A DNA stretch of 62,462 bases, filler included, from Nitrospinae bacterium RIFCSPLOWO2_12_FULL_45_22 (GTDB lineage: Bacteria; 2-12-FULL-45-22), in NCBI GenBank assembly GCA_001803565.1. It is 6 parts of 6 records of this genome, joined end to end, with 100 filler letters (N's around TTAATTAATTAA, not from the genome) between each part and the next. Parts side by side here need not be neighbours in the genome. Positions count along the whole stretch, not along the records: positions 1 to 13,545 come from MHDQ01000217.1; positions 13,646 to 21,555 come from MHDQ01000218.1; positions 21,656 to 34,756 come from MHDQ01000219.1; positions 34,857 to 43,861 come from MHDQ01000220.1; positions 43,962 to 50,258 come from MHDQ01000221.1; positions 50,359 to 62,462 come from MHDQ01000223.1. One strand, written 5' to 3'. Position 1 is the stretch's first letter. Each line of letters begins with the position of its first letter. The notes under the pieces are model-generated. The model did not search any database and was not told the DNA's origin. It worked only from the letters and a program-made list of their open reading frames with translations. Positions 10,681-61,227 of the stretch are shown in pieces. The position numbers and the translations under genes were made by a program.

Positions 10681-10890
10681 GTAACAGACCTAATTTTCAT
10701 AGGATAAATATTTGCCACAGAGACACAGAGGCACCGAGATAAACGAAATGACACACAAAGGGAAGCTAAAAGTGTAAAGTGCAAAGTGTAAAGCTAAGGA
10801 ATATTTCCTTAGTTTTGCACTTTTCGCTTTAAGCTTTACATTTAGTCTCTGTGCCTCTGTGCCTCTGTGCCTCTGTGGCTAAACAGTTAC
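10681..10890. repeat. nested palindromic element (GTAAC ends, 9-mer and 7-mer inverted arrays)
   Basis: GTAACAG..CAGTTAC enclosing CCACAGAGACACAGAGG / CTCTGTGCCTCTGTGG and AAAGTGT/AAAGTGC arrays with their complements. Confidence 0.85.
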
Positions 10891-10939
10891 TATGGTTTTA
10901 ATTTAGCTAACCTGATTAAAATAAAAGGAGGAGGCAAGT

Positions 10940-11734
10940 ATGAAACAGGGCAAAGCAGCATCAGAAGTAAATGTAGGGGCATTATATACCGATATGTGCG
11001 GGTCGCAGATCTATGAGCTGATCTGGGGTGATAATATCCATCCTGGTGGTCTGGAGGAGACTAAAATCCTGGCCGAAAAGGCCGGCCTTAAAAAGGGGCA
11101 AAAAGTTTTGGATATCTGCAGTGGATTAGGTGGCCCGGCCCGGTATCTGGCCAGTACTTATGGCTGTGCCATGGTAGGTATAGATCTCCTGGAGACCCAT
11201 TATAATGAGGCTGTAAAAAGGACCAGAGAGGCTGGCTTAGAGCATCTGGTATCATTTCGCCTGGGCAATGCTATGGAACTACCTTTTGAAGCAGCCAGTT
11301 TTGATGCAGTTTGGGGACAGGATGCCTGGTGTCATGTACCAGATAAGGCAAAGTTAATAGCCGAAGCGGCACGGGTCTTAAAAAAAGACGGGATTATTGC
11401 CTTTACCGATCATTTAGAAACCGAAAAGATGACTGACGAGCTAAGGGGATTGATGCAGCCCCTGGCTATTCCTAACCTCCAAACCTTACCAGGCTATGTT
11501 GCCCTCCTGGCAAATAATGGTTTTACTATCCTTTCCCAGGAAGATATCGGCAAAGGGATGGGGGAGCAGTACCGTCAATCGAATATAATTTTAGAGAATA
11601 AATTCAAAGATGAGGTAATAAACCGCTATGGTCAGGAGATATACCAGGGTACGATTGATATGTTCCAGATGTTGGTAGATGCCGTAGAGCGAGGAATGGC
11701 CGGCCGGGGCAGATTTGTGGCAAAGAAAAAATAA
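10940..11734 (+). CDS. class I SAM-dependent methyltransferase (sarcosine/dimethylglycine N-methyltransferase-like)
   Basis: WGDNIHPGG, VLDICSGLGGPAR, LPFxxxSFDAVWGQDAWCH. Confidence 0.85.
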   Translation: MKQGKAASEVNVGALYTDMCGSQIYELIWGDNIHPGGLEETKILAEKAGLKKGQKVLDICSGLGGPARYLASTYGCAMVGIDLLETHYNEAVKRTREAGLEHLVSFRLGNAMELPFEAASFDAVWGQDAWCHVPDKAKLIAEAARVLKKDGIIAFTDHLETEKMTDELRGLMQPLAIPNLQTLPGYVALLANNGFTILSQEDIGKGMGEQYRQSNIILENKFKDEVINRYGQEIYQGTIDMFQMLVDAVERGMAGRGRFVAKKK

Positions 11735-11750
11735 GGCAGGGATAAATAAA

Positions 11751-12374
11751 ATGGAGAACCCTTTACCTTTACAAATAGAGGAAATACCCCTTACCGAGAA
11801 GAGGAAAAAGCAGATAATCGAGGCTACCTACCAGTGCATCCTGGAAAAGGGCTATAATGCCTGTACTATGCAGGATATAGCGGACAAGACTGAGGTCAGT
11901 AAGGGCATTATACATTACTACTTTGATACCAAAGAAAAGCTCCTTATCTCGGCTATGGAGAACCTGGTAAACCAATGGGATGCCCTGATCGCCGACAAAC
12001 TTAACGGTATAAAAGACCCAAAGCAAGCCCTCCGGGGTTTGCTGGATGTCTGCCTTGAGATTGCCCAGGATGGTGTATCTTATGAGATGCTGGTGAACTT
12101 CTGGAGCGAGATAAGTCAAAAGAAGGCATTTAGGGATGTGAATGCCCACTTTTATTCCCACTACCGAGAGATGATAGGGGATATTATAGAAGAGGGGATA
12201 AACCAGGGGCTCTTTAAGAAAGTGGATCCCCATCTCCTGGCTACTCTAATTATCAGTATTATTGATGGCTTATCTTTGCAATGGCTCTTTGAAAAAAAGG
12301 CCTTTGCCTTAGGCAAGGCAAAAAAGATGGCTGAGGATTTGATTCTTGCTCTTCTTCGAGATAAAAGTTCTTAG
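11751..12374 (+). CDS. TetR family regulator (BetI-like C-terminal domain)
   Basis: RKKQIIEA..TMQDIA..VSKGIIHYYFDTKE; IDGLSLQW. Confidence 0.9.
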   Translation: MENPLPLQIEEIPLTEKRKKQIIEATYQCILEKGYNACTMQDIADKTEVSKGIIHYYFDTKEKLLISAMENLVNQWDALIADKLNGIKDPKQALRGLLDVCLEIAQDGVSYEMLVNFWSEISQKKAFRDVNAHFYSHYREMIGDIIEEGINQGLFKKVDPHLLATLIISIIDGLSLQWLFEKKAFALGKAKKMAEDLILALLRDKSS

Positions 12375-12425
12375 TGGTATAGTGGTGTTAGGTCTAGCAG
12401 CAGTTCATCGGAGAAAGGAGATAAT

Positions 12426-13545
12426 GTGGGGGCTAGTAAATGGGCAAGGGGATTCTTTTGCAGTATCTTGTTTTTGTTTTTAGGCATTAAGCAAGCAGGA
12501 GCCGGTGGCTATTATTTTTATGGGTTCGGAGATAGGGCTGCTTCTCTGGGATATTCCTTTATCGGCCTAGCTGATGATGCAACGGCCATTTACTGGAACC
12601 CGGCGGGCCTCACTCAGTTGCACCAGAAGCAGATAAGGGGGGGCTTCTGGCAGATGATCCAGTATAACTATAAGGATCGGAACCATGTCTCTAATACCAA
12701 TATCAATAGGCTGGCACAAGATATGGACCCCCGCCGTGGCGATTTCCTTACTGCTATATATCCAGAAGAGCCTAACTATTTTCGGGACGATGAGATGGGA
12801 ACCCCTTTAGCCTTGATGCAAGATATAGAAGCTGCCTGGCAGTGGAAGGGGTATCATTTTGGCGCCGGTTTTTATACCCCCTTAGGTACTGCCAGCAGTT
12901 GGCAGGATAGGAACCGACTCCCTTCTCAGTCATTAATAGATGGGAGACTTTGGGGTAACTTTTTTTTGGCAATAAATAATATCTCGGTAGCAAAGGAGAT
13001 ATTACCTGGACTCTCTATTGGTTCAGGATTTAACTTCTTGTGGGGCAAGATGGGGCAGGATGGCCATAAGGCCTTCCTCGACCCGGATAATCCCGGAAGA
13101 AATTATGGCTATGATTATGAGGCCAAGGGTTGGGGCTGGGGTGTAGAAGGGGTATTTGGTGTCCTCTATCAGATGTCTCCCCAGCTACAAGTAGGCGCTG
13201 TGTATCGTACTGGTGGAACCTTAAAATTTACGGGTGAGAATGAGGAGAGACATACCCTTTTACAGATAGCAGATAAGGCCGATTTTCGCTGGCGACTCCT
13301 CAATCCCCCTACCTGGGGTATTGGGATAGCCTTCCGACCTCACCCACGCCTCCTTATTGTGGCTGACTGGCAGCGCGAAGATTGGACCAGGGCTAGATAT
13401 AACTTCAATCAGCATAACCACCGGAGTTCAAGGTCTTTTCTGTTACAGGATATGGATATGGATTTGAATTGGCATGCTATAGACGATTTTCGGGTAGGAG
13501 TAGAATATAAGGTGGCAGAGAATTTTTTCTTGCGGGCGGGCCATG
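12426..13545 (+). CDS. OmpP1/FadL family outer-membrane transporter, 3'-truncated at contig end
   Basis: Signal peptide, ADDATAIYWNPAGL motif, beta-strand pattern. Confidence 0.85.
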
Positions 13546-13645
13546 NNNNNNNNNNNNNNNNNNNNNNNNNNNNNNNNNNNNNNNNNNNNTTAATTAATTA
13601 ANNNNNNNNNNNNNNNNNNNNNNNNNNNNNNNNNNNNNNNNNNNN
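13546..13645. other. artificial contig linker (also 21556-21655, 34757-34856, 43862-43961, 50259-50358)
   Basis: Identical 100-nt N-run/TTAATTAATTAA/N-run with stops in all frames. Confidence 0.98.
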
Positions 13646-13938
13646 ATGATATTAGTAAGTTCCCCCTCTACGATAAAAGCCGTTATAGAACTTATTACAA
13701 ACATTAGCGTACCCATACCGAACAGGATCAACAGGATAGTAAAAACCTTGGCCGGTGGATTATGGCTTATATCTACCACTTCTTCAAACCCTACGGTAGA
13801 AAGGGTTATAACGGTCATATAAATGCTATCCAAAATACTCCATTCTTTGCCGCCTAAGACCTTATACCCGATTATACCGGTAAGGACTACACCAACTAAT
13901 AGAAGTAGACCCACCTTGATCCTGGCTACAAGTCCCAT
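13646..13938 (-). CDS. potassium channel protein (2TM, TrkA-domain type), 3'-truncated
   Basis: DSIYMTVITLSTVGFEE selectivity filter between two TM helices. Confidence 0.9.
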
Positions 13939-14347
13939 AATTCACTTTTGATTAAACCTATATCCAGAGCGAAAACTAATGAATGCGCTCCGGATAAATA
14001 TTTGGGTGTGGCTATTTTCTGTCAGAGACCCATGAACTTTTTTGCAAGTAGCATTTTCAGTCCCGTCTCAGCGTTATTTGCGTGCTCTGCGGTGAACGGT
14101 AGCGGCTCATGCCTGTCTGCGTGCAACGCACAGGCAGGAATGTTTTCTTGTAAAATAAAGCAAATTATAGCATAATAAAGCACGGCATATTGTAGCATAA
14201 TCAGAGATTTTGTTTGCGCAAAATTTGTTAAAGCTTTTCCAATTGTCAGCCACAGAGTAAACAGTAAGCCGTGAGCAGTAAGGACTAACGGCTCACTCCT
14301 CATTGCTCACGCACTCACAATTAAATTAAGAGGGAGGGTTAAGTAAG

Positions 14348-14796: not shown

Positions 14797-16203
14797 GAGG
14801 TTGTCAAGTTTTTAGTTGAAATTTTTATAGTGGCTCCTTCCAAAGTATCCCTCATGCAGCGTACTCTAAAGCCGTATTTCCTTCCTGTACATTCTCGATA
14901 CGTGCAATGACATCGGGTATCGAGGCAAAACCCTTAATCCGATTAAAACCCTCTTCGCAATAGAGAAGAACCGATGCAAGCCAGCGCTGCATCATCTTAC
15001 TCCCCCTGTATCGCTTGATATTGCCCTCACAATCCCGCACCGTGGCGAACATGCTCTCTATGGGATTGGTTGAATGAAGGGTCTTCATCAATATGCCAGG
15101 AACCTTCAGCCGGTGAAGAGTGAGAATCTCTTCCATAGCCTCCAGGAGTGAGTATGCCGCCGACTCATTTATGCCCCTGAGCCATTTCTCCATATCCAAC
15201 AACATCTGGCGGGCATCTTCATACCGGCTTTGCTCCAGGGCCGTCCGGAACCGCCTGTGTGCCTCTTTACGATAGCGTTTCGCCAGATGCTTCTGTATGT
15301 TCCTGTCCTTATGAATTGTACATCTTTGGTGTATGAGTTTCTTCCCAAAACGATCCCTCAATGCCTTGATAATCCCCTTGCCCCCATCCGTAATCCAGAT
15401 AATGCGTCTACTGAGCCGTAAACCCCGCCGCTCCATATCTCCAAGCAGCTCCTCACCCAGCACATGATTCTCTGTAGCACCCTGCCAAAACCCCAATACC
15501 CCCTTTACATCAATACCCAGACACACCATAAATGCCTCCCCACCACGATTTATGGTATCGATAAAAACCGCAAAGGGATTAAAATCAGATAATGTCCTCT
15601 CTTTAAACTCCTCAAGCTTCTTCGCCGTTACCGCAACAATATGGCGAGATACCGAACTGGCAGATACCCCAAAAGCCTTGGCCGCTTCTACCACCGTCTC
15701 TGCATACTTCTGACACGATATGCGCCGCAATACCTTGTGCAACAACTCCTCAGAAAATACATCTCGCTCTCTGAGCTTTTGGTAGCTCTGTAATGCAATC
15801 TCCCCCTGGGGCCCTCGAAGTCGGGGGCGCTGTACCGGTATCTTTTGATCCCCTATATATACCGATCCCGCCTGACTCGCCCATTTGTATACATCCGGCA
15901 AAGATGGTCGATAGTCCAGCCCCGATATCTCTTCCCGGTCTATGTACATGATCGTCTCCGCCATCATCCCCCCAATCTCATTTATTAATACGTCAAACCC
16001 TTGCTTGCCCATTCGGTATATCTGATACATCCTATCAATAAGATCCTGCCTCCCATAGGCCTGCTCAAATCCCCTTATTGCTTTTTTCCTCCGTTTCGTG
16101 TTTACTTTCATCAGTGGCTCCTTTCTTTATGTTTTTGGGTTTCTGTGGATTATGCCACAGGGGAGCCACTTTTTCCAATTTTAACTATTTTTAGTATAAC
16201 CTC
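14797..16203 (-). mobile_element. IS256 family insertion sequence
   Basis: Imperfect TIRs GAGGTTGTCAAGTTTTTAGTTGAAATT / GAGGTTATACTAAAAATAGTTAAAATT around the transposase; no target duplication. Confidence 0.85.
14852..16111 (-). CDS. IS256 family (Mutator) DDE transposase
   Basis: FID, ITDG, HQRCTIHK, STNPIESM motifs. Confidence 0.93.
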   Translation of the reverse strand: MKVNTKRRKKAIRGFEQAYGRQDLIDRMYQIYRMGKQGFDVLINEIGGMMAETIMYIDREEISGLDYRPSLPDVYKWASQAGSVYIGDQKIPVQRPRLRGPQGEIALQSYQKLRERDVFSEELLHKVLRRISCQKYAETVVEAAKAFGVSASSVSRHIVAVTAKKLEEFKERTLSDFNPFAVFIDTINRGGEAFMVCLGIDVKGVLGFWQGATENHVLGEELLGDMERRGLRLSRRIIWITDGGKGIIKALRDRFGKKLIHQRCTIHKDRNIQKHLAKRYRKEAHRRFRTALEQSRYEDARQMLLDMEKWLRGINESAAYSLLEAMEEILTLHRLKVPGILMKTLHSTNPIESMFATVRDCEGNIKRYRGSKMMQRWLASVLLYCEEGFNRIKGFASIPDVIARIENVQEGNTALEYAA

Positions 16204-17287: not shown

Positions 17288-17308
17288 AGCATAGGAATTT
17301 TCATTTTA

Positions 17309-17386
17309 AGATTGCTTCGCTTCGCTCGCAATGACAAGAACATCCTTTCCATGTCATTGCGAGGAACGTTAGTGACGAAGCAATCT
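17309..17386. repeat. GTCATTGCGAG/CTCGCAATGAC REP-like palindromes
   Basis: Related units at 2497-2631, 20622-20669, 30685-30836, 56372-56481. Confidence 0.75.
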
Positions 17387-18810: not shown

Positions 18811-18851
18811 CGGAGCTAGTCCTCTTACTGCGATGGATTGGCTCTTAATCT

Positions 18852-20549: not shown

Positions 20550-20855
20550 CTTATCGCTACTCCGATCTAAGATATATTTATCCCCAAATGATGCAAGCCC
20601 CTGCAAAAACCATCTTGAAGTGTCATCCTGAACCCTTCGCTTTGCTCAGGGATTCGGCTCAGAATGACGGACTAGTAAAGCGCTTTCCCATGAGTTCTGC
20701 ATAAGTTGAGATTATTAACATCTTTGAAGGCCAAAAAAGGGTAAGAAATATCATGAATTCAGGGTAAAGAGTGAACGGTTACGATTTACATTGACTCCAA
20801 AGGGTAAAATCACTAATATGAAATAACGTGAGTTGGTAAAAGGGATAATAAATAG

Positions 20856-21427: not shown

Positions 21428-21655
21428 CGGGTGACAGGTAAATTGTAACTGGTTTTTTCTATTCTTACCCGTTACGAGTTACTATTTACCTGTCACTGCG
21501 GCATACAGAGGGCTTTAGTCTCTTGCAAATTGAGTTTATATCCTTCATCAATGAGNNNNNNNNNNNNNNNNNNNNNNNNNNNNNNNNNNNNNNNNNNNNT
21601 TAATTAATTAANNNNNNNNNNNNNNNNNNNNNNNNNNNNNNNNNNNNNNNNNNNN

Positions 21656-22570: not shown

Positions 22571-22583
22571 GCCCCCACACTAA

Positions 22584-24049: not shown

Positions 24050-24112
24050 GTAGGGCAAGCCTTTAGGCTTGCTTCGGCGAATATTTCCCGCAAGGCTGAA
24101 GCCTTGCCCTAC
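24050..24112. repeat. GTAG-type REP doublet
   Basis: GTAGGGCAAGCCTTTAGGCTTGC..GCAAGGCTGAAGCCTTGCCCTAC; similar singlets near 2805, 31176, 56787. Confidence 0.75.
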
Positions 24113-24275
24113 AACTATTTGAGGCCATATCCGCATTTTTCGAATATAGTGAACGTACTAAATAATCGGACTCTTCTAATTGATAAGGGGTGCTTTTTTA
24201 TTTATAATAAACTCAAATTACGATTTACCATTTACCATTAACCCAAAATAAGGGGGTTGTCCCCATATTAATCTC

Positions 24276-25667: not shown

Positions 25668-25749
25668 ACAGGATTTACCGGATAGAGGATTTATTATTTG
25701 GCTTAACTTTTGTTTCAATTATATTCAGGACGCAGATTTGCGCAGATAA

Positions 25750-25968
25750 CTACTTTCTAAAATTGGAAAATGCTTTCCGCTTAGTCTCTGGTTTAGGTCC
25801 AAAATTGAGTAAAATTCCAACTTCTATCTTGGTTGCTTTTAGATAATTTAAAAGCTGTGCCTCATGCTCATCAAAGCCATAGCCTAGTTTGTTATAAACT
25901 TTATAAAAGGTTCCAATGATCTTTTCCGTTAATTCTTTATATTGAAAATCTTGAAAATCTGCGTTCAT
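25750..25968 (-). pseudogene. GxxExxY (PD-(D/E)xK) protein with in-frame internal deletion, flanked by inverted repeats
   Basis: LTEKIIG..VYNKLGYGF joined directly to HEAQLLNYLKAT..GILLNFG; IRs at 25728-25747 and 25957-25976. Confidence 0.85.
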
Positions 25969-26002
25969 CTGCGTCCAAAACGAAAATTACTATGCTACAA
26001 AT

Positions 26003-27011: not shown

Positions 27012-27108
27012 GTAACCTTTCAGCCACAGGGACACGGAGCCACAGAGAAACCATTCATCTCAGTGACTCTGGGTCTCTGTGGCAAATGTTTTCCTACTGA
27101 ATGGTTAT
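27012..27108. mobile_element. GTAAC-type MITE with perfect 8-bp target duplication
   Basis: CATACCTT at 27004-27011 and 27109-27116; ends GTAACCTTTCAG / CTGAATGGTTAT; internal 9-mer inverted arrays. Confidence 0.9.
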
Positions 27109-29669: not shown

Positions 29670-29849
29670 GTAGCTGCCATCCAAATGCTCCTTTATTAGG
29701 CGGTATTTCTCAGATACAACCCAGACTATACCTGAAAAGATATTGGGTGTCAACGGAATGAAAGCTTATGGGGTACTTCCTGGAATTACTATTCACTATT
29801 TACCATTAACTCATTAAGTGGTGGATCGAAGACTCCCCCTGGCAGCCAC
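29670..29849. repeat. MITE-like element with GTAGCTGCCA/TGGCAGCCAC ends; shorter relative at 29040-29090
   Basis: GTAGCTGCCATCCAA occurs on both sides of the Uma2 gene; no target duplication seen. Confidence 0.55.
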
Positions 29850-29891: not shown

Positions 29892-30263
29892 TTAAGCTTT
29901 AATGATCCTCCTCGCAAATTCCAGGACGGTTCTTATAGCCTCCTCCGGATTATCGCTTAAATTACTCTCTACCACATTTTCCTGGGCTTTATCATGGAAA
30001 TGTTTTGGATAGGTTTGGAGCTTCTTAGCTTCACGGTCAGGCAAGTTATTATATCGATATATTGTTCCATCAACTTCTCTTCTTTCCCAATGATAGGCAT
30101 ATACTCCTTTTTTCTTCACTGAAAGCCAAATATCCATAAAAGTCTCATCCTTAAATAAAAGCCGTAATTTTCCTTCCATCACAGTTATGCCTTCTACAAT
30201 ATCTCCAAAATCGCTTACGGCGATCTGTCTAAATTGGGAATAAATTTTGTCTCTGGATATCAT
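29892..30263 (-). CDS. DUF6516 family putative toxin
   Basis: YAYHW..RYNNLP..TYPKHFH. Confidence 0.75.
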   Translation of the reverse strand: MISRDKIYSQFRQIAVSDFGDIVEGITVMEGKLRLLFKDETFMDIWLSVKKKGVYAYHWERREVDGTIYRYNNLPDREAKKLQTYPKHFHDKAQENVVESNLSDNPEEAIRTVLEFARRIIKA

Positions 30264-30265
30264 TA

Positions 30266-30547
30266 CTAAGTTGCCTTCTGCAATAATTTGGCAACTTTTT
30301 CCTTTTCTAACTCAAGATACTCGATCCTGCCCAAATCATCAAAACACTCCCCCTCGGTTACCTCACCGGCCTCAAGTTTTTTCCATAGCCCCTCAAATGA
30401 ATCCACACCATAGCGGTTTGATAATTTCTTTATTTCTATAGATAAATTTTTTAATTCTACTTCCAGATAGCGCCTGATTCCTTCTTCAACCAACCGTTTT
30501 TTAGGGATCTTTAATTCCTTCTCAACCATTTGTATTAGGCTCGGCAT
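30266..30547 (-). CDS. putative antitoxin partner of DUF6516 protein
   Basis: Small helical ORF 2 nt upstream of the toxin; RYGVDSFE..GEV..DD pattern. Confidence 0.65.
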   Translation of the reverse strand: MPSLIQMVEKELKIPKKRLVEEGIRRYLEVELKNLSIEIKKLSNRYGVDSFEGLWKKLEAGEVTEGECFDDLGRIEYLELEKEKVAKLLQKAT

Positions 30548-30654: not shown

Positions 30655-30893
30655 AGCAATTCCCGGTCAAATTATAAACCGTTGGGATTGCTTCGCTATC
30701 CCTTCGTTGTCCGCCACACCTCGCTCGCGGCTCCGGATCAGAGCTAAAGGCCCTGCGCAATGATAGAAAAAGTCTTCCTCATGTCATTGCAAGGCTTGTC
30801 CCGAGCATAAGCGAGGGGACCGGCCGAAGCAATCTCAAAAACCGGATCGGAACAGGCTCCGCAATCTTATGATAGTTTTGACCGGGAAGTGCT
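30655..30893. mobile_element. MITE-like element with AGCAATTCCCGGTCAAA TIRs enclosing REP-like palindromes
   Basis: Right end TTTGACCGGGAAGTGCT matches 16 of 17 positions. Confidence 0.7.
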
Positions 30894-31051: not shown

Positions 31052-31303
31052 CCTTCTTAATTATACCCCCTAAGAATGTGTGTGAATATTGACACGATAG
31101 AAGCGAGAGAAAAGAAAGGAGGGATATGAGTTTTGAGCGTGATCAAAGATACGGGGTGATGCCTCGCAGTTTATGTAGGGCAGGGCTTTAGCCTTGCCGC
31201 AATCTATCATTATTAAACGTTCAGCCCTTGGCAAAGGAGGCTAACCAATATTGGCTGAAAGCTGATGGCTGAATGCTAATGGAAGAGAAAGGAGGTTAGG
31301 TAG

Positions 31304-34073: not shown

Positions 34074-34222
34074 AATCCTTGGCTGAATAGGGGGTGCCAG
34101 GGGTTATAGGTACAAGGGAGGTTCTAGGTTCGACGTTAGAAGTAAGGACCTAGAACGATGAACTCAGAACGGAAAACGTAGAACGTCGAACGAATAAACG
34201 AATAATGGAAGGAGGGAAGAGG

Positions 34223-34756: not shown

Positions 34757-34856
34757 NNNNNNNNNNNNNNNNNNNNNNNNNNNNNNNNNNNNNNNNNNNN
34801 TTAATTAATTAANNNNNNNNNNNNNNNNNNNNNNNNNNNNNNNNNNNNNNNNNNNN

Positions 34857-43861: not shown

Positions 43862-43977
43862 NNNNNNNNNNNNNNNNNNNNNNNNNNNNNNNNNNNNNNN
43901 NNNNNTTAATTAATTAANNNNNNNNNNNNNNNNNNNNNNNNNNNNNNNNNNNNNNNNNNNNGTGGGGGGTAAAGACG

Positions 43978-50069: not shown

Positions 50070-50373
50070 CTTGCCCTCCTGAAAGACTTATAGTGAAAGT
50101 CTCATAAATAAGGTGGCAGGTTAATCAACAACATTCCACTCTTTAAATCAATCTCTGGATTTCTTGTTTGATATTGATAGCGCCGGTAATAACACCATTA
50201 TCTCTTTTTACTAAGATAGGCAGAGTCTTCTCTGCTAGAGGGACTAACCCCAGGTAAGNNNNNNNNNNNNNNNNNNNNNNNNNNNNNNNNNNNNNNNNNN
50301 NNTTAATTAATTAANNNNNNNNNNNNNNNNNNNNNNNNNNNNNNNNNNNNNNNNNNNNTATACAAGGAGGGAT

Positions 50374-51698: not shown

Positions 51699-51917
51699 GT
51701 AACCGTTCACCCGGCTAATCTTTATCAGCCACTAAGACACAAAGGCACCAAGGAAATGTAAAACGCAAAGCTACCTGTCTGCTACAGGCAGGAAAGTGCA
51801 AAGCTCCTGTCTGTGTGCACCGCACAGGCAGGGAGGAATAATTACCTTAATTTTAGACTTTGCATTTTAAGTTTTGAGCTTCTTGGTGACTTAGTGCCTT
51901 GGTGGCTGAACGGTTAC
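51699..51917. repeat. four-layer nested palindromic element
   Basis: GTAACCGTTCA/TGAACGGTTAC ends, 9-mer arrays, 7-mer arrays, two CCTGTCTG..CAGGCAGG inserts; flanks ACGTAATG/ACTTAATT. Confidence 0.85.
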
Positions 51918-55067: not shown

Positions 55068-55441
55068 CCCTATTCTCCTCCTCTGGTCAGATAGTTTTCC
55101 TTAAATCCTAATAATTAACACTAAATAAGTTAATATTGCAAGAAGAAATTAAAAATTCCTATTAAGAATATATCACAATAGCTCTCTCTGGTAATAAACT
55201 CACCTATCTTTGTGGATGATGAGGCAGTAGTTATCGCAGAGGACGTAAAGAACGTGTCCGTGAGGCGTGTCATCCCTGCCTGTCGACAGACAGGGTGTCC
55301 GTAAAAAAGGCATAAAACTCAGAGCGCAAAACGCAAAGCTAAGGAGAAAAGAATAAATAACTATTCTTTACTCTTTGTTCTCTGCTCTTTGTTCTTTGTT
55401 TGCGGGCCACGGATAGCTGACGGATAAACGCTGACAGGGTA

Positions 55442-56107: not shown

Positions 56108-56123
56108 AATCTCTCCTCCTTAC

Positions 56124-56310
56124 TTAGTGCTTCATTTCATAAATACAGTTACGTATTATGCCTATTTTTTGCCTTCTTTTTTATTAGGAAACCAAGAGGC
56201 CAGGAAATTAACCCCGCCTAAGCGGGGTTAACCTCTCCTGTATTCCTGGTTTCCTTATCATAAGCACTTTCTCTCAAATACGTCACCGTAATTATGGATT
56301 AGAGCACTAA
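56124..56310. mobile_element. TA-bounded MITE (about 30-bp imperfect TIR) with nested palindromes; solo end near 34972
   Basis: TAGTGCTTCATTTCATAAATACAGTTACGTA vs TAGTGCTCTAATCCATAATTACGGTGACGTA (reverse complement of right end). Confidence 0.75.
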
Positions 56311-56318
56311 GGACTAAA

Positions 56319-56500
56319 GTAACAGTTCAGCCCCTATCGAAAATGAATGTCATTCCGACCCCTTCGCCCCTGTCATTCCGAGCGCAGCGAGGAATCTTTT
56401 ATTGGAGCTCAGGGTAAACTCCGGGAGGAATCTTTATTTACCTCCGGTCTCGGAAAGATTTCTCGTTGCGCTCGAAATGACAAAGAACCTGAACTGTTAC
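56319..56500. mobile_element. GTAACAGTTCAG MITE, copy of 2447-2650
   Basis: Same TIRs and body, 22 nt shorter; flanks GGACTAAA/GGAATAAA (7 of 8). Confidence 0.9.
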
Positions 56501-56690
56501 GGAATAAAGTACCTCAGTTAAATCTGAGGCAATAGGCTATGGGTAATAGCTCCTAAGCTTTTTACGCTTTACGTCTTGCGTAGTATCTGTGGTCATATCT
56601 TTTAGAAAACTTTAGTCGGCTAAACGGTTACCAAATTTAACTAACATTGTAACCTGACTTTGTCACATTTGCCATTAAGAAAAAAAAGCC

Positions 56691-56742: not shown

Positions 56743-56837
56743 ATTTAATCGCAGAGGAATTTTCATTTTAATAATGCGGTTTTGTGGTAGTCGCAGGCTT
56801 TAGCCTGCGTTAATTTATATTAATCGGGGAACGGGGG

Positions 56838-57293: not shown

Positions 57294-57297
57294 TTTT

Positions 57298-57539
57298 GTA
57301 ATAGTTTAGCCAAAATAAGATGGAACACAAATTACACGAATATACGAATAGCACGAATGAAGCAAAAATGTTGCCTGCAACGCCAAAGGCTATTGGTGTC
57401 ATTCGTCCATTCGTGGTTAAGTCTTTGGTTCTGGGTTTCGTTTTACAGACGCTTTTTATAGATGTTTATCCCACCGTTGCAGGGTTTAGATGCTATCTCC
57501 GACAATTTTGTGATGAGCTTTATTTAGCTAAACAATTAC
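57298..57539. repeat. degenerate GTAA-ended element with 9-mer inverted arrays
   Basis: GTAATAGTTTAGC / GCTAAACAATTAC; CACGAAT arrays and ATTCGTG complements. Confidence 0.7.
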
Positions 57540-57600
57540 ACTTTTTTTGAACTAAATTCTACTAAATCTGTAGGCTTAATAGAATAAAGGGGGAGAGAGG

Positions 57601-58620
57601 ATGGTCAAGGAGATCGAGGCAAGCATAGACCATAATCTGGAGGAAGGGGTAAAAAGGTCTTTAGAGATCGAGGCCCAAATTGAGGGTAAGACAGGGAAGA
57701 TGGACCTGAATGAGTTAAAGTCAGGAGGGTTTATCAAGCAGCGTCAAAAAGACCTCTTTACCGTACGACTCCGTTGTCCTGGTGGCAGAATTCCTTTAAG
57801 GAAACTAAAGAAGACCTGTGAGGTAGCAGAGAAATACGGTGGGGAGTATGTCCACCTCAGCTTCAGACAATCTTTAGAGATACCTTATGTAAATTACTAC
57901 GATTTCCCTCAAATGATAAAAGAGTTGAGCGAGGAAGAGCAAGTTATCGCTTCTTGCGGCCCAAGGGTAAGGGTCCCGACGGCTTGTAGTGGCTGCGAAT
58001 ATAACCCTAATGGGCTGACCGACACCCAGAAGATGGCCCAGATGGTCAACGAAAAGTTCTTTGGTATAAGATGTCCCCATAAATTCAAGACTTCCTTCTC
58101 CGGTTGCCCGATAGACTGTGCCAGGACTAGCGAGATGGACCTGGGTTTTCAGGGAGCTGTGTATCCGCTCTGGGAAGAGGAGAGTTGCACCGGCTGCACT
58201 ATCTGTGCCTATGCCTGCCTGGAAGGAGCTATTGTAGCTGATTCGGCCAGTGGTAAACCAGTATTTAATCAACTCAATTGTCTTTATTGCTCGGATTGCA
58301 TCAGGGCTTGCCCCACCGGGGCCTGGAAGGCAGGAAAGACCGGTCATATCGTTAGGGTAGGTGGCAGACATGGCAGGCACCCATTAAATGGCTCTGTTAT
58401 TGCCCGATTTATCCCTGATGACGATGTTCCCAGGGTAATTGAGGGGGTATTGGAGTGGTATAACAAAAATGGAGAAGGTAAGGGCCGAATCAGGATAGGG
58501 CAACTGCTCATGGAGCCGGGAAAAATGGAGGCTCTTACCCGACATCTAGCGCCTGTACTGGGGGATAATGCCTTAAAGAATCCGCGGCCTCCTGAACCAG
58601 TTCATATAAACCGATTCTGA
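57601..58620 (+). CDS. small siroheme sulfite/nitrite reductase with ferredoxin domain (AsrC/Dsr-like protein)
   Basis: QRQK..VRLR..GG, PHKFK..SGCPIDC, two CxxCxxCxxxC clusters, VGGRHG. Confidence 0.85.
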   Translation: MVKEIEASIDHNLEEGVKRSLEIEAQIEGKTGKMDLNELKSGGFIKQRQKDLFTVRLRCPGGRIPLRKLKKTCEVAEKYGGEYVHLSFRQSLEIPYVNYYDFPQMIKELSEEEQVIASCGPRVRVPTACSGCEYNPNGLTDTQKMAQMVNEKFFGIRCPHKFKTSFSGCPIDCARTSEMDLGFQGAVYPLWEEESCTGCTICAYACLEGAIVADSASGKPVFNQLNCLYCSDCIRACPTGAWKAGKTGHIVRVGGRHGRHPLNGSVIARFIPDDDVPRVIEGVLEWYNKNGEGKGRIRIGQLLMEPGKMEALTRHLAPVLGDNALKNPRPPEPVHINRF

Positions 58621-58640
58621 TAGAAGGAAGGGGGGAAATA

Positions 58641-58886
58641 ATGACTGAATCAGAGAGGAGAAAAGCAGACGCTACCCTGGATATTTCTCAGGAGGTGTGC
58701 CCCATGACCCTGGTTTTAACCAGGCGTAGGATAGAGGCCCTTAACCCCGGGCAGTGTCTAGAGGTTATTCTATCCGACGGTGAAGCGGTAAGGAGTGTAT
58801 CCCTGAGCGCTAAGGAAGAGGGGCACCGGATACTGCAAGTGAAGAACGAAGATGGCTTTATTAGCATTCTAATAGAGAGATCGTAA
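58641..58886 (+). CDS. TusA/SirA family sulfur carrier
   Basis: LDI..VCPMT, GQCLEVIL..GE. Confidence 0.88.
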   Translation: MTESERRKADATLDISQEVCPMTLVLTRRRIEALNPGQCLEVILSDGEAVRSVSLSAKEEGHRILQVKNEDGFISILIERS

Positions 58887-59091
58887 CCGTTTAGCCACAA
58901 AAAGGCGCAAGAAGCACAAGAAAATTTCTGGTTAAGTTTATAACCACAAAGACACCAAGGACACCAAGAATTTAATTGACCACCATGAGATGCCATTTTT
59001 TGCTTTTCTTTGTGCTCTTTGTGGCTCATTTTATTGGAGTGCTTTTTTGCGGATATATTTTTTGGCAACTTTATTTAAGCTAAACAATTAC
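58883..59091. repeat. GTAAC-ended element with 9-mer inverted arrays
   Basis: GTAACCGTTTAGC / GCTAAACAATTAC; its TAA is the stop codon of the TusA gene. Confidence 0.8.
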
Positions 59092-59113
59092 AATTTTAAG
59101 AGAGGAGGATATA

Positions 59114-59827
59114 ATGACTGTAGTGGCCAAAGAAGAAATAGAGGGGATCGGGGTAGAGTTTGAAAGCAAGAAGGCGCAGGAAATCGTAAACTGGGCCTTG
59201 GAGGAGTATGATCCCAATATTGCTTTATCCTGCAGCTTCGGGGCAGAGGATGTGGTATTGGTAGATATGATAGCCAAGATCAGACCAGGCAGCCGGGTAT
59301 TTACTCTGGATACGGACTTTTTCTTTCCTGAGACCCACGACCTTATAAAAAGAATAAAAGAAAAATATCCCATCGCTTTAGAAGTCTATACCTCTGATAT
59401 GACGATAGAGGAAATGGAGAAAAAATATGCTAAGGAGCTTTACTCTACAGACCCAGACCTCTGCTGTCAAATAAGGAAGCTTCAACCCCTCCAAAAGGCC
59501 CTTTCTGGTTTAACGGCCTGGATTACGGGTTTAAGGAGGGATCAAGCCCCTACCCGGGCTAATACCAAGAAGGTTGAGCTGGATAGCAAGTTTGGCCTGG
59601 TAAAGATCAATCCCCTGGCTGACTGGAGCCCGGATCAGGTTTGGGCCTATATCAGAGAAAATAAGGTGCCCTACAATGTGCTCCATGACCAAAATTATCC
59701 CAGTATAGGCTGTGCTCCCTGCACCAAGCCGGTAAAACCCGGAGAAGACCTTCGGACCGGTAGATGGGCGGGGAAAGGAAAGACCGAGTGCGGCCTCCAT
59801 CCGGCCGATAACCCAGGGAAGAAGTAA
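59114..59827 (+). CDS. cysH: APS/PAPS reductase, Fe-S (APS-type) form
   Basis: CCQIRK, WITGLRRDQ, YPSIGCAPCT, ECGLH. Confidence 0.95.
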   Translation: MTVVAKEEIEGIGVEFESKKAQEIVNWALEEYDPNIALSCSFGAEDVVLVDMIAKIRPGSRVFTLDTDFFFPETHDLIKRIKEKYPIALEVYTSDMTIEEMEKKYAKELYSTDPDLCCQIRKLQPLQKALSGLTAWITGLRRDQAPTRANTKKVELDSKFGLVKINPLADWSPDQVWAYIRENKVPYNVLHDQNYPSIGCAPCTKPVKPGEDLRTGRWAGKGKTECGLHPADNPGKK

Positions 59828-59829
59828 AG

Positions 59830-61053
59830 GTGATGAATCCAGGATATCTGAAAGTAAAATTGGCTTTGGAAGGAGTAAGGCTTGGTGCCTCCCTGCAAGC
59901 TGATGATATTGAAAAACAGATCATCCACCGGATAGAAGGAGACTATCAAGGAGTGATGATGATCTTACCTGAGGATATCTGGGCTTATGTCCCCATAGTA
60001 GATCATCCTGAACCCCATCTCTATACACTGGTTAGAGAGCGGGATACGTTTTTTATCCAGCGAGATGAGGAAAGAATCCCTATCCGGCTAGTCCATTATC
60101 ATAAAACAAATTGTAAAAATCCCTGCCCAAACCAAGATATCCAATCCCTTAAAACAGGTTTTATCCACGGCAAGTTTATATCCTTCTCCCCATTGTCCTG
60201 TTGCCCTTCCCTGGGTTGGCGTACTTACTGCCCTCATCAAGGGCAGCACCATACTATATCCGGGAAGCACCTGGCTTTAGAGGCAGTATTAGAAGACATC
60301 CAAAAGGCAGTAGATAATGACTGGGGAGAATTTGTCCATCTCCATGTCGGTTTAGTGGCCACCGAAGATCGAGGCATTACCTTGTTAGAGCCCTATATCA
60401 CCGCTATAAAAAGGCGGTTTAATACCCTAATAGCAGTAGAAATAGACCCTCCAACCACTAATGACTGGATTGACCGGACTTATGCCCTTGGTGTGGATTC
60501 TATAAGTTATAATATAGATATTTTTAACCCCCCTTTATTTCAAAAGATCCACCCCGAGCGGGAGGCATTGATCGGCCGGGAACGATACCTGGAAGCATTG
60601 GCTTATGCGGCAGAAATATTCCCTGCCGGGACCGTTACCAGCCAATTAATCCTGGGCTTAGAGCCCAAAGAGTGGACCTTGACAGGTATTGATACTCTGA
60701 CTAAACTTAGGATAGTGCCTCTATTGCCCTTACCCTTATTAGGTACCTGGGCCCGCAAAGAGATAGCCAGGGGAGATCTCCTATCCCTTGAAGATATAAT
60801 TGAAATAGGCGCCCATCTTTACTGGGCAGTAAAAAAGAATCGGGTGAGGGTGAATTGGATGAATTTTGGTGGCCATATCCTGACCCCTTTGGATGGTAGG
60901 TTCTTTGCGGCCGAGAAGGCCCGGCTCCAGGTAGCCCTTCATAATATCTACACCTCTAAGCTGGGGGGTAAGGTCCAGGTGGGTTTTTCCAACCTGAGGC
61001 GAAGATTAAGAGTGAAAAGGGTCATGGAATCCCTCGATTCTTCTGGATTATAG
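59830..61053 (+). CDS. radical-SAM-like protein with incomplete Cys motif
   Basis: KVKLALEG, EDRG, SYNIDIF..HP..R..YLEAL..A.EIF..G.V.SQLILGLEP barrel pattern; no CxxxCxxC. Confidence 0.6.
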   Translation: MMNPGYLKVKLALEGVRLGASLQADDIEKQIIHRIEGDYQGVMMILPEDIWAYVPIVDHPEPHLYTLVRERDTFFIQRDEERIPIRLVHYHKTNCKNPCPNQDIQSLKTGFIHGKFISFSPLSCCPSLGWRTYCPHQGQHHTISGKHLALEAVLEDIQKAVDNDWGEFVHLHVGLVATEDRGITLLEPYITAIKRRFNTLIAVEIDPPTTNDWIDRTYALGVDSISYNIDIFNPPLFQKIHPEREALIGRERYLEALAYAAEIFPAGTVTSQLILGLEPKEWTLTGIDTLTKLRIVPLLPLPLLGTWARKEIARGDLLSLEDIIEIGAHLYWAVKKNRVRVNWMNFGGHILTPLDGRFFAAEKARLQVALHNIYTSKLGGKVQVGFSNLRRRLRVKRVMESLDSSGL

Positions 61054-61074
61054 AAGAGAAGACGTTCTTCTAGA

Positions 61075-61227
61075 AACCACAAATTATACAGATTTTTACA
61101 GATACACCCAGGTTAATTAGAAGTCAGGAGTCAGAATTCAGAATAGAAGTTGGTTGTCCTTTCATGCTGGTTATTAATTCTGACTCCTGTATTCCCTAAA
61201 TAGTATAATCCGTGTGCATCCGTGGCT
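61075..61227. repeat. nested 9-mer/7-mer inverted arrays
   Basis: CCAC..ACAGAT arrays and ATCCGTG complements enclosing AGTCAGG/AGTCAGA/ATTCAGA and TTCTGACTCCTG. Confidence 0.75.

Follow-up and report, generated by a model that had tools for sequence, protein, structure and literature searches.

REP sequences are strong hairpins known to stabilise transcripts, and a family of four-helix-bundle proteins, members of which recur below, was first found within 23S rRNA intervening sequences. IS66 elements have been described with 20-30-bp inverted repeats and direct repeats of 8 bp (PMC11946415), and in ISDge4 (IS66 family, ISBst12 group) the terminus reads GTAACTGCTCAGCA and the direct repeat measures 8 bp (PMC12898284). 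The GxxExxY family PF13366 was classed as 'Unknown' in a 2012 superfamily survey, and our literature search retrieved no report on GxxExxY function or genomic context, nor any known activity on DNA.

We analysed a 62,462-nt stretch of DNA from Nitrospinae bacterium RIFCSPLOWO2_12_FULL_45_22 (the window), which is a chain of at least six short contigs joined by linkers of the form N-TTAATTAATTAA-N; distances between elements across these joins are meaningless. Eight sites had been described in advance, seven as layered palindromic repeats and one as an inverted array bracketing a GxxExxY gene; array detection, a palindrome scan and, for two sites, DNA folds bear out strongly hairpin-forming elements and the description at all eight, with the corrections given below. 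The window contains the following features (no strand is given where none applies):

2447..2650, GTAAC..GTTAC element of MITE type with a GTCATTCCGAGCG-type palindrome inside; perfect 8-bp flanking duplication CTTTATCA
10681..10890, layered element with GTAAC ends (inverted repeats, DNA fold): outer arrays of CACAGAGR 8-mers at 10716-10739 (+) and 10847-10877 (inverted), inner arrays of AAAGTGY heptamers at 10769-10796 with inverted copies at 10811-10843, central palindrome at 10794-10812
14112..14138, plus strand, solitary mini-hairpin, CCTGTCTG-loop-CAGGCAGG
20769..20782, minus strand, isolated terminus of GTAAC type, reading GTAACCGTTCAC on that strand and lacking a nearby partner
25728..25976, minus strand, GxxExxY cassette remnant: 3' arm array, 72-aa ORF, 5' arm array
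27012..27108, short GTAAC-type element with CACRGRGN arrays; perfect 8-bp flanking duplication CATACCTT
51699..51917, layered element with GTAAC ends, flanking 8-mers 6/8 alike: CACNAAGR 8-mer arrays at 51730-51754 and 51880-51904 (inverted), AAAGYNN heptamers further in, and two mini-hairpins (51774-51792, 51806-51832) in the left heptamer array only
55236..55440, composite repeat with ACGGAT-type arrays of period ~11 nt, TTCTTTG heptamers at 55364-55400 and a mini-hairpin at 55275-55294 (minus strand)
56123..56311, long imperfect palindrome without short-period arrays, palindrome score 36: outer arms 35 nt, middle arms 28 nt, centre TTAACCCCGCCTAAGCGGGGTTAA
56319..56500, second copy of the 2447-type GTAAC element; flanking 8-mers GGACTAAA and GGAATAAA, 7/8 alike
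56501..56631, GTAAC element of array type reduced to its right half, left half missing; from the end inward, terminus, CCACAGATA-type 9-mers, CGTAAAG heptamers
57298..57539, degenerate GTAAT..ATTAC element with CACGAATA arrays, irregular layering and a terminal inverted repeat of ~22 nt
58883..59091, GTAAC..ATTAC element with 9-mer arrays GCRCAAGAA and CACCAAGRA and ~50 nt between the right array and the right terminus
61075..61227, minus strand, gene-less GxxExxY-type cassette without GTAAC ends: right arm, in reverse complement, CCACGGATGCACACGGAT (5'-arm type, ATG kept), left arm TACAGATTTTTACAGAT (3'-arm type), AGTCAGR heptamer arrays inside

The preliminary description had not listed 2447-2650, 56319-56500, 55236-55440, the half element ending at 56631, the solo end at 20769-20782 or the mini-hairpins at 14112 and 55275.

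Tandem Repeats Finder returned arrays of period 8 at 10716-10739 and 10847-10877, of period 7 at 10769-10793 and 61115-61144, and of period 8/9 at 57333-57358, 58896-58922 and 58947-58968. Outer arrays in the window are mostly of period 8-9, shorter than the 9-10-mers originally claimed. When each arm was compared with its reverse-complemented partner, palindrome scores exceeded the shuffled-window maximum of 24 at 10810 (54), 51850 (40), 56220 (36), 27055 (29), 57425 (28), 61175 (28) and 25855 (25). The score of 58883-59091 did not exceed that maximum; an inverted-repeat search found arms of 31 nt with 71% complementarity there. As single-stranded DNA, 10681-10890 and 51699-51917 fold with z = -9.4 and z = -7.4, respectively, and 0/200 shuffles were as stable in either case. 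Elements 10681, 51699 and 61075 and the half element 56501-56631 clearly show the proposed ordered layering, which is poor in 57298 and 58883; at 56124-56310, where array layering had also been reported, there is a single long palindrome without arrays. From the observed anatomy, gene-array associations, deletion series, target duplications and multi-copy state, we consider it probable (roughly 0.6) that the elements are composites of four separate small repeat modules, nested one in another.

The outermost module is defined by its ends. The terminus motif GTAACNGTTYAGCC occurs 11 times in the window versus 0.55 expected, and none of 100 shuffles contained more than 3. The copies at 2447-2650 and 56319-56500 are near-identical (4 substitutions and one 22-nt indel), with identity beginning and ending exactly at the termini. 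Flanking 8-mers agree at 8/8, 8/8, 7/8 and 6/8 positions in four of the seven GTAAC elements, hence at 7/8 or better in three (null probability of such agreement 0.0007), and three of the seven have no target duplication. The ends resemble the ISDge4 terminus, and the 8-bp duplication is common to both. On these sequence grounds the GTAAC..GTTAC layer has the hallmarks of an ordinary IS66-family MITE shell, which was probably moved by an IS66-family (ISBst12 group) DDE transposase encoded elsewhere, leaving 8-bp target duplications; the window holds no IS66-family transposase, its sole transposase belonging to the IS256 family. Assignment of this layer to the GxxExxY/array system was considered and rejected on account of the 8-bp target duplications and the ISDge4-like terminus.

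The shell might instead be the whole story, in that one ancestral composite MITE with all layers was spread by an IS66-type transposase and altered by slippage and arm-to-arm conversion, array likeness elsewhere being convergence of slippage-prone sequence. Common descent predicts the same layer order that is seen in 10681, 51699, 61075 and 56501-56631; termini are conserved while interiors differ, and both the unit flavour common to the arms of one element (AGAG versus YAAG) and the almost identical arms of locus L040 fit homogenisation. However, wholly unrelated interior lies within the same termini in 2447 and 56319, arrays occur without GTAAC ends in 61075 and in the GxxExxY remnant, and of the mini-hairpins, that at 14112 stands by itself and that at 55275 lies in a repeat not of the GTAAC type. 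Moreover, the array-gene association recurs in distant phyla, where a search for the GTAAC terminus motif came up empty in 78 of 80 loci, specific units recur (AGTCAGG in Aulosira and in the window), and first codons are kept in gene-less copies. We therefore regard a single ancestral MITE as improbable.

If the elements are nested composites, the inverted arrays just inside the shell, with a 7-nt core (CRCRGAT or CACNGAG) every 8-10 nt, would be the ends of GxxExxY cassettes. These cassettes are widespread units of 0.4-0.6 kb with one gene, and internal deletion appears to reduce them to gene-less hairpins. In a comparison set of 80 GxxExxY loci from other genomes, 73 of them testable for flanking inverted repeats, the suspected bracketing by inverted arrays was found for 35 of the 73 at 0/200 shuffles versus 4/400 control ORFs; 45 of the 73 lay above the control 99th percentile and 28 did not. 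A convergent motif-array pair spans the gene in 40/80 loci, the strict-motif pair being absent in 40/80. Next to the gene there are 2.41 arrays per kb versus 0.115 per kb elsewhere (21-fold), and the loci contain 238 arrays versus 6 in shuffled sequence. Cores are spaced by 9 nt (27 cases) or 10 nt (31 cases), and the 8-mer period in the window differs from the 9-10 nt typical of these gene-bearing cassettes. Hosts include Planctomycetota, Desulfobacterota, Chloroflexota, Bacteroidota, Acidobacteriota and ANME-1 archaea, among them a complete isolate chromosome (L075). At 9973-10244 of L002, a GTAAC..GTTAC element encloses CACAGAT arrays and a 79-aa deleted GxxExxY gene; L003 has a second GxxExxY gene (E = 6e-41) between CACTGAGGA arrays beginning with TCCAC, and in L042 a CACNAAGG array adjoins a GTTAC end. 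The 8-10-mer layer of the window (CRCRGAT/CACNGAG type) matches the ends of GxxExxY (PF13366, PD-(D/E)XK) cassettes.

The GxxExxY ORF of the window (25750-25968, minus strand, 72 aa; TIGR04256, E = 5.7e-13; PF13366, E = 5.7e-14) is flanked by GGACGCAGATttgCGCAGAT (25728-25747) and inverted ATCTGCGttcATCTGCGTCC (25957-25976). As first described, its start codon lies inside the repeat, the ATG at 25966-25968 falling within the right (5') arm, and a start codon is built into the 5' array in 18/79 loci (about a quarter). Cassettes in L029, L005, L034, L043 and L060 have exactly its termini, GGACGCAGAT. Judged by its sequence, this gene is an internally deleted, dead remnant without the catalytic core and so cannot be an active enzyme. 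For the GxxExxY nuclease in general, G31, F32, E34, Y37, D73, E83 and K85 are invariant across 38 sequences, the AlphaFold2 model has a pLDDT of 91.4, and the best PDB fold matches are to Cas4 SSO0001, lambda-exonuclease-like enzymes and Hjc resolvases. The idea that GxxExxY may be the cognate enzyme of the 9-mer layer rests on the gene-array association, and the window copy is not that enzyme.

This association suggests that a GxxExxY nuclease may mobilise the arrays. It would bind the phased cores at both ends and make its cuts there, so that cassettes, and derivatives that have lost the gene, would move with no duplication of the target. Against direct evidence of cassette mobility, GxxExxY cassettes show no target duplication (0 nt in 25 of 42, 1 nt in 10), and no filled site with an empty counterpart was found. 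The association would arise equally well if the arrays worked for the gene, by way of regulation or mRNA structure, and not the gene for the arrays. One such scheme, which we consider unlikely, places the arrays at the RNA level, as in rRNA intervening sequences: promoterless cassettes would be read through from host operons, an array stem would hide the start codon, and RNase III would cut, so that the small mRNA is released or silenced and the host transcript restored, the proteins being cargo (e.g. defence or addiction) rather than mobilising enzymes. The start codons within arrays suit this scheme, as does the end-to-end stem formed between the 5' array of the window remnant and its 3' array in the RNA minimum-energy fold (z = -3.5; 1/200 shuffles as stable). 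So do the tight gaps around cassettes (medians 102 and 69 nt), four-helix-bundle genes between co-oriented cas genes (cas6 and cas4; cas10 and cmr3) and the origin of that family in 23S rRNA intervening sequences. Co-orientation with both neighbours (47:12 upstream, 52:13 downstream) is weak evidence, because about 80% is near what adjacent genes in bacteria usually show. In contrast, inter-core spacers are not complementary between arms, unit number is often unequal (2 versus 3), a stem requires no tandem phased repeats, the gene lies inside rRNA in 0/10 loci scanned, and dispersal and the deletion series are not explained by RNA-level action alone. Between the arms of a cassette, cores are 92.5% identical and spacers 82%, and most differences are transversions (95), with 37 wobble-compatible versus 26 incompatible transitions, which is neither a clear excess nor a clear sense-strand bias. 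This pattern argues for protein binding rather than base pairing.

Decay of the cassettes can be followed in steps. GxxExxY homologues of 66-106 aa have varied internal deletions and conserved ends, gene-less hairpins retaining the first codons of the gene are common, and convergent-array spacing is bimodal: 37 pairs lie no more than 100 nt apart, and others cluster at 350-500 nt. Empty arrays, earlier taken for non-autonomous forms, do look like deletion derivatives of GxxExxY cassettes, since the start codon and the first codons of the gene (with ATGAAC) survive in gene-less hairpins of L010 and L014.

Whether the arrays are mobile at all bears on a further explanation, in which they serve the host as protein-binding sites, transcript-stabilising hairpins or terminators and merely chance to build up beside small accessory genes, only the outer MITE being mobile. 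The elements are intergenic and often follow directly on stop codons (10681 abuts the TGA of its upstream gene), and strong hairpins can stabilise transcripts. Between some related genomes (L036/L050, L044/L047, L071/L077, L015/L040, L006/L008) the cassettes also occupy orthologous positions, indicating stable inheritance rather than frequent movement. What makes a purely host-serving role improbable is that the paralogous cassettes L012 and L048 are 82% identical over 469 columns, with likeness only within the cassette and bounded at the arrays, and that identity in the C-terminal half of the gene is 72-87% between phyla, archaea included. Conservation is higher in cassettes than in the sequence flanking them (89% versus 75% in L006/L008; 89% versus 67-71% in L010/L016), L050 has a tandem amplification of a 110-nt hairpin without gene of which L036 has one copy, and the elements matched no Rfam family.

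Further in, the inverted heptamer arrays would be the ends of a second cassette type, with a four-helix-bundle gene of the 23S-rRNA-intervening-sequence protein family. An unbiased scan of 2881 ORFs gave six bracketed matches, among them, as a positive control, an IS200/RAYT-like gene with REPs, as well as the four-helix-bundle gene of L002 (TIGR02436, E = 5e-28) between GGTTCA arrays. Bracketing of such genes by heptamer arrays, anticipated at the outset, was evident for this gene and, in a plasmid sample of 12 genes (from 12 of 19 matching records), for 8 at 0/200 shuffles and 10 at 1/200 or fewer; of 26 flanks, 22 have 7 as their best period. In L091, the flanking heptamers are AGTCAGG/AGTCAGA, common to window element 61075. 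The gene in L084 has direct rather than inverted arrays, and those in L086 and L089 have no significant inverted repeat. The heptamer layer of the window matches the ends of these TIGR02436 cassettes. Annotations as 'S23 ribosomal protein' are consistent with the family's old name. We know of no catalytic activity of the four-helix-bundle protein, which therefore cannot itself cut the arrays, and this weakens the picture of one enzyme per layer.

The fourth module, a mini-hairpin of 19-27 nt, forms a dispersed repeat of its own, found 4 times in the window versus 0 in 100 shuffles: two within 51699-51917, where they would have broken an existing array, one within 55236-55440 and one alone at 14112. 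Nesting of separate elements, as first suggested, is thus supported for this repeat, three of its four copies lying inside other elements. For the cassettes, nesting would arise when one inserts mid-way into another and then loses its gene.

The original interpretation is partly supported overall; the small selfish elements may target each other, as it proposed, or may descend from one composite ancestor. Both kinds of cassette, with tiny genes and repeat-array ends, are found across many bacterial phyla, and shells filled with leftover cassette ends may explain the origin of long-puzzling short intergenic tandem repeats. The action proposed for the GxxExxY nuclease on its arrays would be analogous to the presumed action of RAYT on REPINs.

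The window consists of ordinary chromosomal DNA of ~45% G+C and carries housekeeping genes for a TonB-dependent receptor, methionine synthase, RpoD, methylmalonyl-CoA mutase, PBP2, TolC, AmiC, PhoU, and sulfite and PAPS reductases, with DsrO/P-like and sulfite-reductase-like proteins among its gene content. In RpoD, the window shares at most 47% identity with its nearest named relatives (Ca. Tectomicrobia, Ca. Binatia, Desulfobulbaceae). Besides two small gaps, the window contains five contig-joining linkers of the six-frame-stop type (44 N, TTAATTAATTAA and again 44 N), indicating that short contigs, possibly in arbitrary order, were chained into a pseudo-molecule:

13546-13645, linker
21556-21655, linker
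34757-34856, linker
43862-43961, linker
50259-50358, linker

The preliminary description had claimed layered palindromic repeats, from GTAAC..GTTAC ends through inverted arrays of degenerate 9-10-mers and of 7-mers to short palindromes, with a GxxExxY gene in one layer. At every site that it listed the described content was present, and Tandem Repeats Finder reported arrays of period 7, 8 and 9 in the window. Sliding-window RNA minimum free energies, computed across the entire window, failed to set the elements apart from GC-rich coding DNA and were replaced by an alignment scan of each arm against the reverse complement, in which seven of the eight listed sites beat the best score of the shuffled window. 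The eighth, 58883-59091, scored below the shuffled maximum and has 31-nt arms that are 71% complementary. Single-stranded DNA folding gave z = -9.4 for 10681-10890 and z = -7.4 for 51699-51917. The 10681 element occupies the gap between a MetE-like gene and a methyltransferase gene, and the 58883 element that between TusA and CysH. While all eight listed members held, the list was incomplete and has to be extended by the following:

2447-2650, further element
56319-56500, further element
55236-55440, further element
ending at 56631, half element
20782, solo end
two solitary mini-hairpins

No Rfam family matched the window at gathering thresholds, and rRNA was the only match in the ten loci scanned. 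A CRISPR identity of the arrays was ruled out by their 7-10-nt units without spacers, and a homing-endonuclease gene by the absence of an intron or intein context.

The GxxExxY gene of the window is the following open reading frame (ORF):

25750-25968, minus strand, GxxExxY/PF13366 ORF of 72 aa with profile matches to TIGR04256 and PF13366

It scores 49.3 bits against TIGR04256 (cut-off 35) and 52.9 bits, in two stretches, against PF13366 (cut-off 22), and is flanked by GGACGCAGAT-nnn-CGCAGAT and an inverted counterpart, the right arm containing the ATG. Its sequence aligns to both ends of the family and lacks the middle, including the GxxExxY motif and the catalytic D...ExK core. Because the family invariants E34, Y37, D73, E83 and K85 all fall within the deleted stretch, we count it as a remnant and not as an active family member. 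Many short homologues of 66-106 aa each carry a different internal deletion, and all keep the N-terminus (MNxDxQD...) and the C-terminus (...FDNxRK). Scanning species-representative genomes with the family gave at least 588 relatives; the best 80, each with 10-kb flanks, were used as loci. Among these best 80 of at least 588, the hosts include Planctomycetota (Scalindua, Kuenenia), Desulfobacterota, Chloroflexota, Bacteroidota, Acidobacteriota and ANME-1 archaea, and the C-terminal half of the protein is 72-87% identical across hosts. The predicted model of the family has a confident PD-(D/E)XK fold (pLDDT 91.4), with Cas4, lambda-exonuclease-like enzymes and Hjc resolvases as the nearest solved structures (TM ~0.55). 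A sequence search of the PDB found no relative of the window remnant or of the family profile, and a 2012 survey of PD-(D/E)XK enzymes entered PF13366 as 'Unknown'.

Comparison of these loci bore out the bracketing of GxxExxY genes by arrays that the preliminary description had proposed. The 5' flank of each gene was aligned with the reverse complement of its 3' flank, with 200 shuffles per locus; 73 of the 80 loci were testable, six having too-short flanks and one no ORF. An inverted flank repeat unreached by any of the 200 shuffles was found at 35 of the 73 GxxExxY loci, compared to 4 of 400 control ORFs (90-200 aa) from the same loci, and 45 of the 73 lay above the 99th percentile of the controls. 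The arrays are built on the core CRCRGAT (CGCAGAT 33 times, CACAGAT and CACGGAT 32 times each), spaced at 9 nt (27 cases) or 10 nt (31 cases), and usually end in an outermost unit GGACRCRGAT beyond which the sequence is unrelated. In 1.05 Mb we counted 238 arrays, versus six in shuffled sequence, with a density of 2.41 per kb up to 150 nt from the gene, compared with 0.115 per kb elsewhere. A convergent array pair spans the GxxExxY gene at 40 of 80 loci, and at 18 of 79 an array unit and the start codon are fused (ATG-AAC-RCN-GAT, read as M-N-A/T-D). These tests establish the anatomy of a cassette, one small gene between inverted short-repeat arrays (its 5' and 3' arms), and the association of gene and array. 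In one locus, L040, both arms (9731-9786 and 10188-10243) contain an identical additional GGAGCCTTCGGCTTC mini-hairpin and agree at 54/56 positions, whereas the arms of its orthologue L015 have diverged, which points to arm-to-arm homogenisation.

The array type of the window was also found at GxxExxY loci of other genomes. The loci and the window together contain 23 arrays of this type (CAC-N-RRR-N, at least three units) versus none in shuffled sequence, and in locus L003 such arrays (CACTGAGGA, TCCAC start) lie on both sides of a second GxxExxY gene, which is full-length (E 6e-41). Locus L002 (Ca. Desulfaltia) contains at 9973-10244 a complete GTAAC..GTTAC element whose interior consists of CACAGAT arrays and a 79-aa deleted GxxExxY gene, and in locus L042 a CACNAAGG array adjoins a GTTAC end.

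An unbiased scan for bracketing inverted repeats among the 2881 other ORFs of the loci returned six bracketed ORFs. One of them, an IS200/RAYT-like gene between REP-type palindromes (L028, 5285-5788), served as a positive control; another, in L002, encodes a four-helix-bundle protein (TIGR02436, E 5e-28) between GGTTCA arrays of period 7-8. As phmmer with the latter protein matched only itself among all ORFs of the loci, the search was moved to plasmids, where tblastn gave 19 plasmid records; 12 were taken, and seven duplicates or second plasmids of the same strains were left out. Inverted flank repeats were reached by 0/200 shuffles in eight of the 12 and by at most 1/200 in ten, with period 7 best in 22 of 26 flanks, so that heptamer arrays bracket four-helix-bundle genes, a point that the preliminary description had suggested checking, in L002 and most plasmid loci. 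At two plasmid loci (L086, L089) the inverted repeat was not significant, and a third (L084) has direct arrays instead of inverted ones. The genes occupy tight gaps between unrelated genes. On three cyanobacterial plasmids (L084, L087, L090) the cassettes lie between cas6 and cas4 (twice) or cas10 and cmr3 (once).

Heptamer units on the plasmids include GGGAACA, GGGTGTA, GGTGACA and AAAAGCT, and in Aulosira AGTCAGG/AGTCAGA, the same units as in the inner layer of the window at 61115-61144. No four-helix-bundle gene was found among the ~75 window ORFs scanned. The period-7 arrays reported in the window by Tandem Repeats Finder are:

10769-10793, period-7 array
24218-24243, period-7 array
34151-34192, period-7 array
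55364-55400, period-7 array
61115-61144, period-7 array

Solitary heptamer arrays outside GTAAC elements lie at 24218-24243, 29788-29817 and 34100-34205 (TTACCAT, ACTATTA, TAGAACG), the last with inverted copies upstream.

Gene-less forms of the cassettes are common in the loci. Convergent array pairs fall into two size classes, one of 37 pairs, from 18 sources, at most 100 nt apart, and a second at 350-500 nt that holds the gene. Gene-less hairpins in locus L010, together with three in tandem in L014, retain ATGAAC and the first codons of the GxxExxY gene, which marks them as deletion products of gene-bearing cassettes. Likewise, window element 61075-61227 has one arm with the 5'-arm signature and ATG and another with the 3'-arm signature and, judged from these signatures, is a gene-less fossil of a GxxExxY-type cassette. 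In locus L050 (a Bacteroides isolate) about ten tandem 110-nt gene-less array hairpins (4747-5822) stand beside a GxxExxY cassette, where the syntenic L036 has one. At 2855-2881 of locus L018, a CACTAAA/CACAAAAG array of the window 8-mer type lies within a gene-less GxxExxY-type array pair, indicating that array types nest outside the window too.

Likeness between paralogous cassettes of one genome (L012/L048) is confined to the cassette, and at orthologous sites cassettes are more similar than their flanks (89% vs 75% in L006/L008; 89% vs 67-71% in L010/L016), a pattern suggestive of strong constraint, conversion or re-acquisition. That some cassettes are stably inherited at orthologous sites argues against frequent movement. 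Among syntenic locus pairs we found no gain or loss of a cassette, and the indels inspected in L075/L053 and L032/L019 held other sequence. The ends of 42 cassettes showed direct repeats of 0 nt in 25, 1 nt in ten, 2 nt in four, 3 nt in two and 4 nt in one, and hence lack the fixed-length target-site duplication of a DDE-type cut-and-paste transposon.

The outer layer of the window elements is of a different kind. The GTAAC ends named in the preliminary description are present, with a terminus consensus of GTAACNGTTYAGCC; what it did not consider is their identity. At up to one mismatch, the window has 11 copies of the terminus GTAAYNRTTYAGCC, compared with 0.55 expected and a maximum of three in 100 shuffles, and these surround quite different interiors. 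Copies 2447 and 56319 differ by four substitutions and one 22-nt indel, and their similarity is bounded exactly by GTAAC and GTTAC. Of the seven complete elements, two have flanking 8-mers that match at 8/8 positions (2447, 27012), one at 7/8 (56319; null P(>=7/8) = 0.0007) and one at 6/8 (51699), the other three matching at 4, 2 and 1. One source gives ISDge4 (IS66 family, ISBst12 group) the termini GTAACTGCTCAGCA and GTGACTACTCAGCA and an 8-bp direct repeat (PMC12898284), and another gives IS66 elements inverted repeats of 20-30 bp and 8-bp duplications (PMC11946415). By eye, the GTAA-beginning terminal inverted repeats resemble the ISDge4 terminus GTAACTGCTCAGCA. This likeness, together with the 8-bp target-site duplications and the sharp copy boundaries, means that the outer layer is best read as the shell of an IS66-type (ISBst12-group) miniature transposon (MITE), a known kind of element. 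A cognate transposase for the GTAAC termini was not found within the 62-kb window, the sole transposase gene there being of the IS256 family (14852-16111, minus strand), which does not match these termini.

The mini-hairpin CCTGTCTG-loop-CAGGCAGG behaves as a separate small dispersed repeat. It has four copies in the window and none in shuffles: two in the left heptamer array only of 51699-51917, one inside 55236-55440 and one alone at 14112. None was found in the 80 loci. Another palindromic repeat family lies at 17308-17386 and 30684-30835 (outer GATTGCTTCG...CGAAGCAATC, inner GCAATGACA...TGTCATTGC). A hairpin repeat of the GTAGGGCAAGCCTTTAGGCTTGC type is present at 24051-24113, 31176-31200 and 56784-56810 and has no relation to the arrays. 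A possible toxin-antitoxin pair lies on the minus strand at 29892-30547, where an ORF resembling the TumE toxin (PF20126, E 2.8e-13) comes immediately after a 93-aa ORF that belongs to no known family.

With regard to mechanism, we favour a model in which the putative GxxExxY nuclease would bind the arrays at both cassette ends and mobilise the cassette and its gene-less derivatives, in the way proposed for RAYTs and REPINs (PMC3116915). The main rival places the action at the RNA level, as in rRNA intervening sequences, with read-through transcription of the cassette and processing of its end-to-end stem. Some support for it comes from the start codon within the stem, from the co-orientation of cassettes with their neighbours (47:12 upstream, 52:13 downstream) and from the four-helix-bundle protein, which has no known catalytic activity. 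However, array cores are kept between arms more than spacers (434/469 vs 680/827 columns), the differences between arms are mostly transversions (95), and in a sense-strand wobble-bias test wobble-compatible transitions did not clearly dominate over incompatible ones (37 vs 26). Combined with tandem units spaced close to one helical turn, these array features appear to fit protein-binding sites better than a base-paired stem, and for these reasons binding by the nuclease is the model we favour.

That each of the two families is bracketed by its own type of phased array across phyla suggests that they are genes of small selfish cassettes. Tentatively, with a probability of roughly 0.3, GxxExxY and four-helix-bundle genes would represent two sister classes of mobile cassettes that are very small and lack a promoter, distributed from Bacteroidota to ANME archaea, whose ends are inverted phased arrays of 9-10 nt and 7 nt, respectively. 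They would move without target duplication by a mechanism unlike that of any described transposase and decay into the 'STRR' heptamers and many other unexplained palindromic intergenic repeats, and the window elements would be fossils of one class inside the other that later became enclosed by an IS66-type MITE.

Both GxxExxY/PF13366 and four-helix-bundle/TIGR02436 are large families with a very wide distribution, and the bracketing gives each a testable role. Short-period intergenic arrays, including the cyanobacterial heptamers, have to our knowledge never been explained; cassette ends that remain after gene loss offer a concrete origin for them. In draft genomes such arrays break assemblies, the window itself being chained from short contigs, and yield spurious ORFs. 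Should the nuclease indeed act on the arrays, this would amount to a novel mode of DNA mobilisation and possibly provide a sequence-directed DNA tool. MITEs, IS66 termini, REP/RAYT pairs and heptamer arrays are already known kinds. For the association of genes with arrays, no description was found in the literature searched; subscription journals and database family descriptions were outside its reach, and a prior mention is possible.

Several known systems share parts of this architecture. The 23S rRNA intervening sequences of Leptospira and Coxiella carry a four-helix-bundle ('S23p') ORF, and resemble the heptamer cassettes (L002 and eight of 12 plasmid loci) in this small ORF of the same family, its inverted-repeat bounds and sense insertion into a transcribed region. 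The intervening sequences sit in a 23S rRNA helix, from which RNase III removes them. Heptamer and GxxExxY cassettes, however, lie between protein genes and not in such a helix (the window holds no rRNA, and the only rRNA in ten loci is 7 kb from the gene), and the four-helix-bundle cassettes end in tandem heptamer arrays. The short tandemly repeated repetitive (STRR) heptamers of heterocystous cyanobacteria, known since 1990, are likewise tandem heptamers in intergenic or non-coding DNA, often in inverted sets, as are the arrays in the window, and our plasmid examples come from Nostoc, Calothrix, Aulosira and Anabaena. In contrast to STRR, the arrays here bracket one specific gene family and extend beyond cyanobacteria to the window, Riemerella and Ca. 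Desulfaltia; the RpoD relatives and sulfur-type gene content of the window are not those of a heterocystous cyanobacterium. The mini-hairpin is akin to the small dispersed repeats of Nostoc, reportedly described by Elhai and colleagues in 2008, a study that PMC3116915 lists as its reference 43, as a 19-27-nt hairpin that stands alone and inside other repeats, but differs from them in sequence family and host, with four copies in the window. Bacterial interspersed mosaic elements (BIMEs) of enterobacteria, whose modules are REP variants, are also intergenic mosaics of a few kinds of short palindromic modules in regular order, yet these modules have neither tandem short-period arrays nor embedded gene remnants. 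With IS66-family (ISBst12-group) elements and derived MITEs, the outer layer shares GTAAC-starting termini and 8-bp target duplications; unlike the IS elements, the window elements contain no transposase gene, and their interiors are other palindromic repeats.

The closest parallel in organisation is the REPIN-RAYT system, in which, according to PMC3116915, short inverted repeats belonging to a small nuclease-type gene lie on either side of it, gene-less hairpin-forming doublets are dispersed in intergenic DNA, and REP clusters form where repeats insert beside or into one another. The GxxExxY gene is likewise flanked by its own inverted repeats and accompanied by dispersed gene-less inverted doublets, and its role in moving cassettes is putative. 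The enzymes differ in that PF13366 has a PD-(D/E)XK fold and is not an HUH/Y1 (IS200-like) transposase. Moreover, GxxExxY genes are multi-copy and decay by internal deletion, whereas RAYTs are described as single-copy in the same source (PMC3116915), and the cassettes end in arrays of two to four phased 7-nt cores instead of single REP palindromes.
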